Positions 595-2,985 of a DNA stretch of 64,000 bases are shown one piece after another; position 1 is the first letter of the stretch, and every line of letters starts with the position of its first letter. The notes beneath the pieces are model-generated. The model had not been told where the DNA came from, did not search any database, and worked only from the letters and a program-made list of their open reading frames with translations. A program made the position numbers and the translations under genes. The DNA comes from Escherichia coli (GTDB lineage Bacteria; Pseudomonadota; Gammaproteobacteria; Enterobacterales; Enterobacteriaceae). The stretch lies in NCBI RefSeq assembly GCF_048403405.1, contig NZ_CP183129.1; one strand, given 5' to 3'.

Positions 595-1213
595 ACAATT
601 CCAGCGAGCTGCTGGTATTAGCGAGGCTCTGGCCGCACGCTGGTTCTCGCATATAACTTCTGCGATGAAAGAGTTTGGTATCAGAAAACCCGAAGATCAG
701 GCAATGTTTATTGCTCAAGTCGGGCATGAGTCTGGGGGCTTCACTAGGTTGCAGGAGAATTTCAACTACAGCGTCACAGGACTGGCTAACTTTGTTCGGG
801 CAGGACGTCTCACTCAGGGACAGGCCAACGCATTGGGGCGACGCGCAGGCGAACCACCATTGCCACTTGAGCGCCAGAGAGCGATTGCCAATCTGGTGTA
901 CAGCAAACGCATGGGGAACAATGCCCCCGGCGATGGCTGGAATTACCGTGGCCGCGGACTTATCCAGATTACCGGTTTGAATAACTATCGTGATTGCGGA
1001 AACGGCCTGAAAGTGGACCTGCTGGAGAATCCTGAACTGTTGGCGCAGGACGAATACGCGGCTCGTAGCGCGGCGTGGTTCTTCTCCAGCAAAGGTTGCA
1101 TGAAGTATACCGGCGATATTGCACGTGTAACTCTGATTATCAATGGTGGCAGGAATGGCATCGACGACCGGCGCGCGCGGTACGTCACTGCCAGTAAGGT
1201 GCTGGCTGTATGA
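584..1213 (+). CDS. phage endolysin, glycoside hydrolase family 19 (chitinase-like lysozyme)
   Basis: Track ORF 353..1213 trimmed to the internal ATG at 584 (codon 78), which is preceded by GAGG. Motifs QVGHESGGF and [15 protein letters not shown] resemble GH19 signatures. No N-terminal TM segment, so a holin-dependent endolysin. Confidence 0.8.
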
Positions 1214-1692
1214 TCTGGTCATTCGTAAAAGCATACCGTAAACAGTTGATTATCATGGCGGTGCTTGCTGTTCTGGTCATATCAGGAGTTGTTGCCTGGA
1301 ATGTGCACGGCAGTCGTCAGTACGACGCTGGGTATGCACAGGCGAAAGAAGACCGCAAAACCGAAGATGAGAGAGTTCGTCAGCACTACGAACAGGAGAA
1401 ATCGATCAATGAACGTGAAGCGCAGCAGAGGATCGACCAGGCGCGCAATGATGCTCTTGATGCTGCCGCTCGCGCTGGCCGGTTGCAGCAACAGCTCGTT
1501 GCCATCCGTGAGCAGCTCAGGCACTATAACGCCATTGTCGGCGCTGGGTCGTCAGCCGCAGACACCGGAGTTTTGCTTGCCGACGTGTTCAGCAAATCTC
1601 TCGAGAGAAATAGACAACTGGCAGAGTATGCTGACCGGGCAGCCGAAGCCGGAAGAGTCTGCGAAAAACAGTACGACACCCTGACCAGATAG
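1210..1692 (+). CDS. Rz-like inner-membrane spanin (i-spanin)
   Basis: ATG at 1210 overlaps the endolysin stop (ATGA). N-terminal TM ([18 protein letters not shown]) followed by a charged, Q/R/E-rich coiled-coil-like region. Position is right after the endolysin. Confidence 0.65.
1409..1684 (+). CDS. Rz1-like outer-membrane spanin lipoprotein, embedded in the +1 frame of Rz
   Basis: Internal ATG at 1409 in track ORF 1265..1684, with AGGAG 11 nt upstream. Signal peptide [25 protein letters not shown] followed by Cys (lipobox LAGC). Pro/Ser-rich mature part. Fully nested inside Rz. Confidence 0.5.
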   Translation: MNVKRSRGSTRRAMMLLMLPLALAGCSNSSLPSVSSSGTITPLSALGRQPQTPEFCLPTCSANLSREIDNWQSMLTGQPKPEESAKNSTTP

Positions 1693-1844
1693 CATGGCAT
1701 TTTTCATGGTACTGATTTCCGGTGACGGTATATAAAACGGTACGAGAAAAATTTATCTTTGGAAAAATGTTATCACTCAATTGGTTATGTGTGTCGTAAA
1801 TAATTGAGTGGGAATGATTTTGATCCCTGCACTATGAATGAACA

Positions 1845-2466: not shown

Positions 2467-2985
2467 TTAGCTCTTTTCAGGACATTTGGTATTTGGCTGA
2501 ATACGCGTTTCGTTATACGTCGTGGTAATAACAACGGCTAAACCTGTCGTAAACTGGCACTCTTTACCCACCTGGGTGGAGGTATACACTTTGGTGCCTT
2601 CCTTATACGTTAGAGAAACACCTTCCACTAAGGTTTTATCATTCACCATAGAACCCGCTGCCGCGCCAACAGCTCCGCCGCCAACTGCACCTGCCGTCGT
2701 TCCGGAATTGCTGCCAGACCCGACGTTGTGGCCAATAACACCGCCAGCGACTGCACCAATAAGCGCGCCGAAGGCTTGTGCGTTTCGTTTATTTTGGGAG
2801 TTGTCTACGGCAACTTTTGCGGGAAGAATGGAAATAATATTAACGGTTTTAGTTTCTTGTTTGGTATTCAGTTGAACGGTTTGATAAACATCGGCGGCAT
2901 GATCATCAGCATTTGACTGGCATCCTGCCAGAGTGAATGACGCTAACATTACCACAGGCAGAAGACATTTTTTAAATTTCATCAC
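2467..2985 (-). CDS. yfgH: outer-membrane lipoprotein YfgH (glycine-zipper)
   Basis: 172-aa track ORF. Lipoprotein signal ending in LAGC. Gly-rich zipper GALIGAVAGGVIGHNVGSGS. Synteny. Confidence 0.9.
   Translation of the reverse strand: MMKFKKCLLPVVMLASFTLAGCQSNADDHAADVYQTVQLNTKQETKTVNIISILPAKVAVDNSQNKRNAQAFGALIGAVAGGVIGHNVGSGSNSGTTAGAVGGGAVGAAAGSMVNDKTLVEGVSLTYKEGTKVYTSTQVGKECQFTTGLAVVITTTYNETRIQPNTKCPEKS

Follow-up and report, generated by a model that had tools for sequence, protein, structure and literature searches.

A putative embedded spanin gene pair at the right end of an epsilon15/phiV10-like prophage of Escherichia coli

RESULTS AND DISCUSSION

Geometry of the nested reading frames

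Near the start of a 64,000-nucleotide stretch of Escherichia coli DNA (contig NZ_CP183129.1, assembly GCF_048403405.1), hereafter the window, one open reading frame lies inside another. This raises two questions: whether the inner frame is a gene at all and whether the two products would act together as the spanin of a phage lysis cassette. An earlier note on this DNA had read the locus as an Rz-like ORF at 1210-1692 with an Rz1-like ORF nested in its +1 frame from 1409, and we confirmed both the coordinates and the frame. The outer ORF encodes 160 aa on the + strand; the inner one, on the same strand, runs from the ATG at 1409 to the TGA at 1682-1684, encodes 91 aa, and is in the +1 frame relative to the outer, (1409-1210) mod 3 being 1. 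Since the inner stop lies 8 nt short of the outer stop, the inner ORF (1409-1684) is fully embedded, that is, the whole candidate o-spanin gene is contained, in another frame, in the candidate i-spanin gene (1210-1692). The features of the pair are as follows.

1210-1692, + strand: candidate i-spanin (Rz-like), 160 aa; PF10721 DUF2514 1.1e-40, phrog_312 (Rz-like spanin) 1.2e-58; equivalent to PhiV10p30 and to the epsilon15 Rz-like protein
1243-1299, + strand: predicted transmembrane anchor of the i-spanin, residues 12-30; hydrophobic in sequence, helical in the model
1394-1398, + strand: Shine-Dalgarno AGGAG of the inner gene, with a 10-nt spacer to ATG 1409
1409-1684, + strand: candidate o-spanin (Rz1-like), outer-membrane lipoprotein precursor, 91 aa, mature form 66 aa; phrog_11621 (Rz-like spanin) 1.3e-40; equivalent to PhiV10p30a and epsilon15 Rz1, at the same offset
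1475-1486, + strand: lipobox L23-A24-G25-C26, with Ser at +2; PROSITE PS00013-type pattern match
1574-1588, + strand: periplasmic C56-x3-C60 pair of the o-spanin; both Cys invariant in 13 family members, down to 31% identity
1660-1662, + strand: Cys151, the single periplasmic Cys of the i-spanin; invariant in 14 diverse i-spanins and 59 close protein variants

The two products

The match of the outer product to DUF2514 scored 139.8 bits, against a cut-off of 26 bits for PF10721. In the AlphaFold2 model obtained with an Rz alignment (mean pLDDT 80), a helix at residues 10-110 spans the anchor and the first periplasmic helix, and is followed by a break at 111-114 (GAGS) and a second helix at 115-159; this plan is like that of lambda Rz in Kongari et al. 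2018 (anchor/helix, break, helix; PMC6139136). The GenBank record of epsilon15 also notes "one transmembrane domain" for its Rz-like protein. Sequence and AlphaFold2 model together give the outer product an N-terminal anchor followed by a largely helical periplasmic domain, as in an i-spanin. A PDB sequence search with Rz returned only designed repeat proteins as compositional matches, and NCBIfam held no meaningful match for the outer or the inner product, nor for lambda Rz/Rz1.

For the inner product, the earlier note had described a lipoprotein signal with an LAGC lipobox. With a rule-based call (PS00013-type pattern), this description stands: there is an n-region with five K/R residues, a hydrophobic core with a 9-residue Kyte-Doolittle mean of up to 2.56, and the lipobox Cys26, encoded at nt 1484-1486. 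An Asp following the lipidated Cys retains a lipoprotein in the inner membrane under the Lol-sorting rule, and none of 13 diverse o-spanin family members has Asp at this position. By these rules the inner product has both a signal peptidase II lipobox and a non-Asp sorting residue, the combination seen in o-spanins. The Pro/Ser-rich segment that the same note placed after the lipobox is also present, the mature 66 aa comprising 13 Ser, 8 Pro, and 7 Thr (42% S/P/T), although it is less rich in Pro than lambda Rz1. Searches of Pfam with the inner product gave nothing above noise, and three distant o-spanins behaved likewise. A low-confidence structure model of Rz1 (mean 59.7) is mostly unstructured, with the signal helix and one weak C-terminal helix (58-76); this helix agrees with the ~19 helical residues given for the phiV10 o-spanin in the supplement of Kongari et al. 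2018 (PMC6139136).

Periplasmic cysteines are found in both subunits (Cys151 in Rz, Cys56 and Cys60 in Rz1) and are invariant in the family. In the 2018 survey, 507 of 528 spanin systems have at least one periplasmic Cys in either subunit (PMC6139136).

Start of the inner gene

The AGGAG proposed earlier as the ribosome-binding site of the inner gene is present 10 nt before the ATG. Its GGAG core is kept in all 63 of the distinct homologous genes described below, but AGGAG also codes for Q-E of Rz, so that this conservation is not independent evidence. The upstream starts TTG 1265 and ATG 1367 were ruled out, as homologues have in-frame stops between them and 1409. A downstream start, at ATG 1448 or 1451 (Met14 or Met15), in a gene that is otherwise real, would fit the retention of the ATG-ATG at 1448-1453 in 59 of the 63 homologues, the variable length and sequence of the N-terminal extension preceding the hydrophobic core in distant homologues, and the differing starts annotated by their depositors. 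We consider it quite improbable nonetheless. Starting at Met14 strips all five basic residues from the n-region, and the bases before 1448 (CAGGCGCGCA) contain no Shine-Dalgarno motif, unlike those before 1409. Moreover, ATG 1409 is present in 63 of 63 genes, against four in which the ATG at 1448 or 1451 is lost, and the equivalent of 1409 is the start used by phiV10, epsilon15, and the curated spanin table. The mature lipoprotein is identical with any of the three starts.

Chance, conservation, and selection

An embedded ORF might also be no more than a by-product of how the outer gene is composed, in which case it would not be a gene and its lipobox-like motif would be a coincidence. The Rz protein and its codon mix do leave the +1 frame open often: when the synonymous codons of the outer gene were permuted 5,000 times, 17% of the permutations had an open stretch of 139 codons or more in this frame, and 46% had an ATG-started ORF of 91 aa or more. 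Given these frequencies, we dropped the open frame as an argument and used conservation instead. ORFs bearing a lipobox appeared in 5.8% of the synonymous-codon permutations, a generous control because the Rz protein co-evolved with Rz1, and in just 0.7% of codon-order shuffles, a rarity that counts against coincidence. Over the whole window, there are 699 candidates of 60 aa or more that start with ATG, of which only 10, in 8 distinct reading frames, pass a crude lipoprotein filter; these include two starts of the inner ORF and the real host lipoprotein YfgH, which also has an LAGC box.

The match of the inner product to phrog_11621, at 1e-40, is difficult to reconcile with a compositional by-product, and the same is true of its conservation. 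Our close set was built from 80 IMG/VR loci (89-100% protein identity) plus phiV10, epsilon15, SPN9TCW, and two Klebsiella phages, which yielded 63 distinct 483-nt Rz genes. The inner ATG and the position of the inner stop are kept in all 63, with no premature stop. Nine of them have an in-frame stop zero to one codon before the inner ATG; the inner frame is therefore protected only from 1409 onward, and its start region is fixed. Outside the 63, the Rz of one locus (L072) is truncated to 25 codons and represents a decayed copy.

Variation within the close set is also constrained by the inner frame. At third positions of Rz, diversity is 0.124 in the part before the overlap but 0.053 inside the overlap, and of the possible Rz-synonymous changes 62 of 121 were found in the former part versus 42 of 197 in the latter (Fisher 5e-8). 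Changes that alter Rz are in excess when they are silent in Rz1 (24 of 166 possible) compared with those altering both proteins (24 of 402; odds ratio 2.7, p = 0.0015). Moreover, Rz1 could acquire a stop through any of 13 changes that are silent in Rz, and none of these occurs in the 63 genes. Both the lower synonymous variation and the excess of changes silent in the inner frame speak against a by-product, and the pattern of substitutions is that of purifying selection on both frames.

A tblastn search with Rz retrieved 280 phage records, of which eight at 29-53% identity were inspected: Enterobacter phages Tyrion and SABI, Escherichia phage Phi05_1999B, Salmonella phages Skate and SB28, Klebsiella phage RSU-F4K5, Edwardsiella phage eiAU, and Pectobacterium phage Possum. 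These distant homologues come from podophages and siphophages, and in all eight a +1 ORF with a lipobox is found inside Rz. Every distant i-spanin scanned (6/6) belongs to DUF2514 and every distant o-spanin scanned (7/7) to phrog_11621. Across diverse members, the invariant residues are the lipid Cys, Cys56, Cys60, Pro50, and Leu43 in the o-spanin, the CxxxC pair among them, and Cys151 and Tyr155 in the i-spanin. The inner frame is thus conserved in homologous Rz genes, close (63/63) and distant (8/8) alike, a point on which the earlier note had made its reading depend. Judged by homology and conservation, the inner ORF at 1409-1684 is above chance, and we give practically no credence to the idea that it is a by-product.

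Relation to known spanins

The same nested pair is annotated in GenBank, at the same relative coordinates, in phiV10 (PhiV10p30/p30a) and epsilon15, and SPN9TCW is annotated alike; the entry for PhiV10p30a carries the note "signal peptidase II cleavage / lipid attachment site". In the one RefSeq (PGAP) E. coli chromosome that we inspected, the outer gene is named "DUF2514 domain-containing protein" and the inner gene is uncalled. Kongari et al. 2018 list epsilon15, phiV10, TL-2011b, SPN1S, and others as the "Bcep176" family in their tables of embedded i-spanins and o-spanins (PMC6139136). For both phiV10 and epsilon15, their supplementary table gives "emb", +1, an offset of 199 nt, 8 nt from the end, L = 483, and a span of 0.412 L-0.983 L (PMC6139136). 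Comparison with a curated spanin set had been suggested in the earlier note, and the geometry of the window pair turns out to be that of these two rows. From the GenBank annotation and this listing it follows that the spanin pair was already known.

The likeness extends to position and size. In phiV10 and epsilon15 the pair occupies the same place, after a holin and a GH19 endolysin and just before attP, with the same lengths (483 and 276 nt), +1 frame, 199-nt offset, and 8-nt tail. Rz and Rz1 of phiV10 are 90% and 96% identical to those of the window, and the corresponding values for epsilon15 are 84% and 86%. The differences are point differences only, apart from the fact that the window pair lies in an integrated prophage at guaA and not in a phage record. 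On these sequence comparisons, the pair belongs to the epsilon15/phiV10 ("Bcep176") family, in which a DUF2514/phrog_312 i-spanin is combined with a phrog_11621 o-spanin.

The earlier note had called the pair lambda-type, which is right for the embedded +1 architecture and the inferred mechanism but not for the sequence families. As in lambda Rz/Rz1, the lipoprotein gene is wholly embedded in the +1 frame of the gene for an anchored, helical periplasmic protein, the lysis cassette ends with the two genes, and both partners have periplasmic Cys. The window o-spanin extends from ~0.41 L to ~0.98 L of the outer gene, within the range of embedded pairs in the 2018 survey, ~70% of which have the o-spanin start at 0.4-0.5 L and the end at 0.9-1 L (PMC6139136). 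However, the window products gave no match to Pfam PF03245 (Rz) or PF06085 (Rz1) at E up to 0.1, whereas with the same Pfam library, as a positive control, lambda Rz matched PF03245 with 183 bits and lambda Rz1 matched PF06085 with 72 bits. Pairwise BLAST of the window proteins to those of lambda yielded weak, composition-driven matches. The mature o-spanin of the window has 66 aa, 8 Pro, and a CxxxC pair, in contrast to 40 aa, 10 Pro, and one Cys in lambda; its i-spanin has one periplasmic Cys where lambda has two, and its endolysin partner is a GH19 enzyme, unlike that of lambda.

Two other spanin types share some of these features. The P2 LysB/LysC type also has two components and a lipoprotein gene that starts inside the other gene, but it is overlapped, while the inner gene of the window ends inside the outer one. 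T1 gp11, a unimolecular spanin, has an N-terminal outer-membrane lipoprotein signal like that of the window o-spanin, but combines the lipobox with a C-terminal membrane anchor in one chain. The inner product of the window lacks a hydrophobic C-terminus and ends in a polar tail, and we rejected the unimolecular type.

Lysis cassette and prophage setting

Directly 5' of the pair lie a holin gene and a GH19 endolysin gene, as in a lysis cassette, and downstream of it is the junction with the host chromosome.

1-296, + strand: 3' part of a gp23-like membrane protein gene (putative holin or antiholin), cut by the window start; phrog_27301 6e-43, phrog_198 (holin) 1.5e-16
286-594, + strand: holin, 102 aa; PF05449 Phage_holin_3_7 7.5e-27, phrog_217 (holin) 4.5e-35; length as PhiV10p28
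584-1213, + strand: GH19 endolysin, 209 aa; phrog_181 5.7e-92, PF00182, PDB 4OK7 4.5e-117 over residues 1-208
1803-1819, no strand assigned: prophage/host junction, attR core TTGAGTGGGAATGATTT; phage records match up to 1819, prophage-free E. coli from 1803

The gp23-like gene is the first of the cassette; its counterpart PhiV10p27 has 405 nt, which would place the start ~105 nt before the window. PDB 4OK7 is an endolysin chain, named as the SPN1S endolysin in a note of the epsilon15 record, and by eye the endolysin N-terminus shows no obvious hydrophobic segment. Stop and start codons overlap in the cassette, and those of the endolysin and Rz do so as ATGA.

Positions 1-1819 match Uetakevirus phages (phiv142-3 97.3%, phiV10 89.9%, epsilon15 82.2%). 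Since phage records match up to 1819 and prophage-free E. coli from 1803, the junction is a 17-bp core over the last codons of guaA (I-E-W-E-stop), a gene annotated at this edge in prophage-free E. coli; the epsilon15 record places the integrase and IHF sites just before the junction point. By these matches, a Uetakevirus prophage has integrated at the guaA 3' end, and the first ~1,819 bases of the window form its right end. Such a junction occurs in 362-536 of 5,426 complete E. coli genomes. Beyond it are the host genes yfgI, yfgH, yfgG, and pdeF, and one strong terminator, at 1844-1871, lies in this host DNA. A promoter and terminator scan of 1-2600 gave no more sites than in shuffled sequences, and Rfam had no match at gathering score over the whole window.

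The pair could be intact and yet sit in a defective or silent prophage, as a relic that no longer serves lysis in this strain but has not yet decayed. The window covers only the last ~1.8 kb of the prophage, without its regulatory, replication, and structural genes, and the truncated Rz of at least one related contig (L072) indicates that decay occurs in the family. The terminal location of the cassette in the prophage does not point to a deletion, since attP and the integrase gene directly follow Rz in the Uetakevirus phages phiV10 and epsilon15, which makes this the normal layout. Against a relic, the four cassette ORFs that can be judged all have the lengths found in phiV10, and the isolated phage phiv142-3 matches the region at 97.3% and has the very same Rz protein (100% identity); taken together, the phiV10 lengths and this identity make the visible cassette indistinguishable from that of a viable phage. 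In addition, many related IMG/VR contigs measure 38-42 kb, the full genome size of a Uetakevirus-type phage. We regard a relic as unlikely. The earlier note had spoken of a functional, not decayed, cassette, and this is borne out for the visible ORFs, which are intact, within the ~1.8 kb of the prophage contained in the window.

Proposed function

Considering the evidence as a whole, we infer, with a probability of roughly 0.93, that the ORFs at 1210-1692 and 1409-1684 code for a two-component spanin, one subunit each, and are the last lysis-cassette genes of an epsilon15/phiV10-like prophage at the guaA 3' end. The spanin function of the pair is a putative one, drawn from homology in name, from architecture, and from analogy with lambda. 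In the searchable literature we found no experiment on this spanin pair or on any member of the DUF2514/phrog_312 family, only the 2018 survey and passing mentions.

By sequence and structure model, Rz is an N-terminally anchored protein of the inner membrane whose periplasmic part is long and mostly helical, and Rz1, which has its own start codon at 1409 in the +1 frame, is a small lipoprotein with an outer-membrane-type signal. By analogy with lambda (PMC6139136), the two would bind through their C-terminal periplasmic regions and so form a bridge across the periplasm. The conserved Cys may form disulfide links that stabilise the complex; homodimer disulfide links are reported for lambda Rz/Rz1 in Kongari et al. 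2018 (PMC6139136). On the same lambda model (PMC6139136), the bridge would be held inactive by the intact cell wall until the GH19 endolysin (584-1213), enabled by the holin (286-594), has destroyed it, whereupon the complexes would fuse the inner and outer membranes and thereby break the last barrier to phage release.

Layout variation and modularity

Members of the DUF2514/phrog_312 plus phrog_11621 family in which the inner gene is fully embedded include those of the window, phiV10, epsilon15, Tyrion, Skate, SB28, and eiAU. In Pectobacterium phage Possum, Enterobacter phage SABI, and two further loci (L096 and L097), the inner gene runs 22 nt past the outer stop, which makes these pairs formally overlapped. 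Possum and SABI are N4-like, and in all four cases both proteins fall in the same families as the window pair. The 2018 survey, on the other hand, reported no family mixing embedded with overlapped or separated members and considered the layouts parallel, unrelated evolutionary paths (PMC6139136). A scan of viral contigs with the Possum Rz found two loci only, too few to gauge how frequent the overlapped layout is.

The degree of identity also disagrees between the two parts of Rz. Identity between the window and Skate is 36% in the N-terminal part and 60% in the C-terminal part, whereas between the window and Phi05_1999B it is 70% and 29%, and between SB28 and Skate 84% and 31%; these values come from alignments split near the lipobox codon and not at a mapped breakpoint. 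From such comparisons, it appears that the DNA coding for the C-terminal helix of the i-spanin and for the mature o-spanin is transferred among phages as a single module. We lean towards the view that the family holds two layouts, embedded and overlapped, which, if this is general, would be interconvertible, and that the C-terminal half of Rz and the mature Rz1 are swappable. If the mixture of layouts is real and general, a pair could pass from embedded to overlapped, or back, simply by moving a stop codon.

The spanin pair itself is real, conserved, and ordinary; it is already catalogued and adds nothing new biologically. Its value is one of annotation: a correct call of the pair marks the right end of the prophage and shows that the visible lysis cassette is intact.

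Mosaicism of Rz

At the level of sequence comparison, Rz is a mosaic, since the identities of its N-terminal and C-terminal parts are discordant between phages. The two parts were separated at approximately window position 1486 in both alignments of diverse family members (A1 and A2), a split set near the lipobox codon and not at a mapped breakpoint.

Rz identity between phages (N-terminal / C-terminal)
Window and Skate: 36% / 60%
Window and Phi05_1999B: 70% / 29%
SB28 and Skate: 84% / 31%

The C-terminal module is found in two types, 'NRQLAEYAD / [15 protein letters not shown]' versus 'SNRAYVATAEEAE / VCSPTCLKKATE', and the segment coding for the i-spanin C-terminal helix together with the mature o-spanin seems, from these sequences, to be swapped between phages as one unit.

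Prophage end and neighboring host genes

Window 1803-1819 (context 1693-1900): prophage/host junction, 17-bp core TTGAGTGGGAATGATTT
Window 2467-2985, minus strand: yfgH, host lipoprotein gene, two genes from the prophage end

The junction was delimited by phage records, which match the window as far as 1819, versus prophage-free E. coli genomes, whose match begins at 1803; its core covers the final guaA codons (IEWE-stop). Host DNA in the guaA-yfgI interval contains the strong hairpin terminator (1844-1871). The YfgH lipobox, LAGC (MKFKKCLLPVVMLASFTLAGC), is identical to that of the o-spanin, which made yfgH usable as a positive control within the window when candidates were filtered by lipobox.

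Annotation and decay of the spanin genes

L083 1256-1675: o-spanin as deposited, phage Tyrion
L085 1280-1648: o-spanin as deposited, RSU-F4K5
L072 1501-1578: truncated Rz gene, related prophage contig IMGVR_UViG_2703718858_000001

Both deposited o-spanins start far upstream of the equivalent of window position 1409, which gives them a very long N-terminal extension ahead of the signal peptide. These starts are probably mis-set, in the same way as the 64 wrong o-spanin starts counted by the 2018 spanin survey (PMC6139136). In E. coli FDAARGOS_497 (NZ_CP033850.1), the counterpart of the window Rz gene (L095 4210-4692) is named only "DUF2514 domain-containing protein" by RefSeq (PGAP), and the embedded o-spanin is not called. 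Although this was the one record inspected, the omission may be widespread, given that, among 5,426 complete genomes of E. coli, 362-536 have the prophage/yfgI junction. L072 is a decayed example of this lysis cassette, its Rz gene being cut to only 25 codons and hence lacking an embedded o-spanin.

Embedded and overlapped layouts

L086 844-1366: overlapped homologous pair, Pectobacterium phage Possum
L094 1201-1726: overlapped homologous pair, Enterobacter phage SABI

In these and two other N4-like phages (L096 and L097), the phrog_11621 o-spanin gene ends 22 nt past the DUF2514 i-spanin stop. Therefore, embedded and overlapped layouts occur within one sequence family, a mixture of which the 2018 survey reported no case (PMC6139136).
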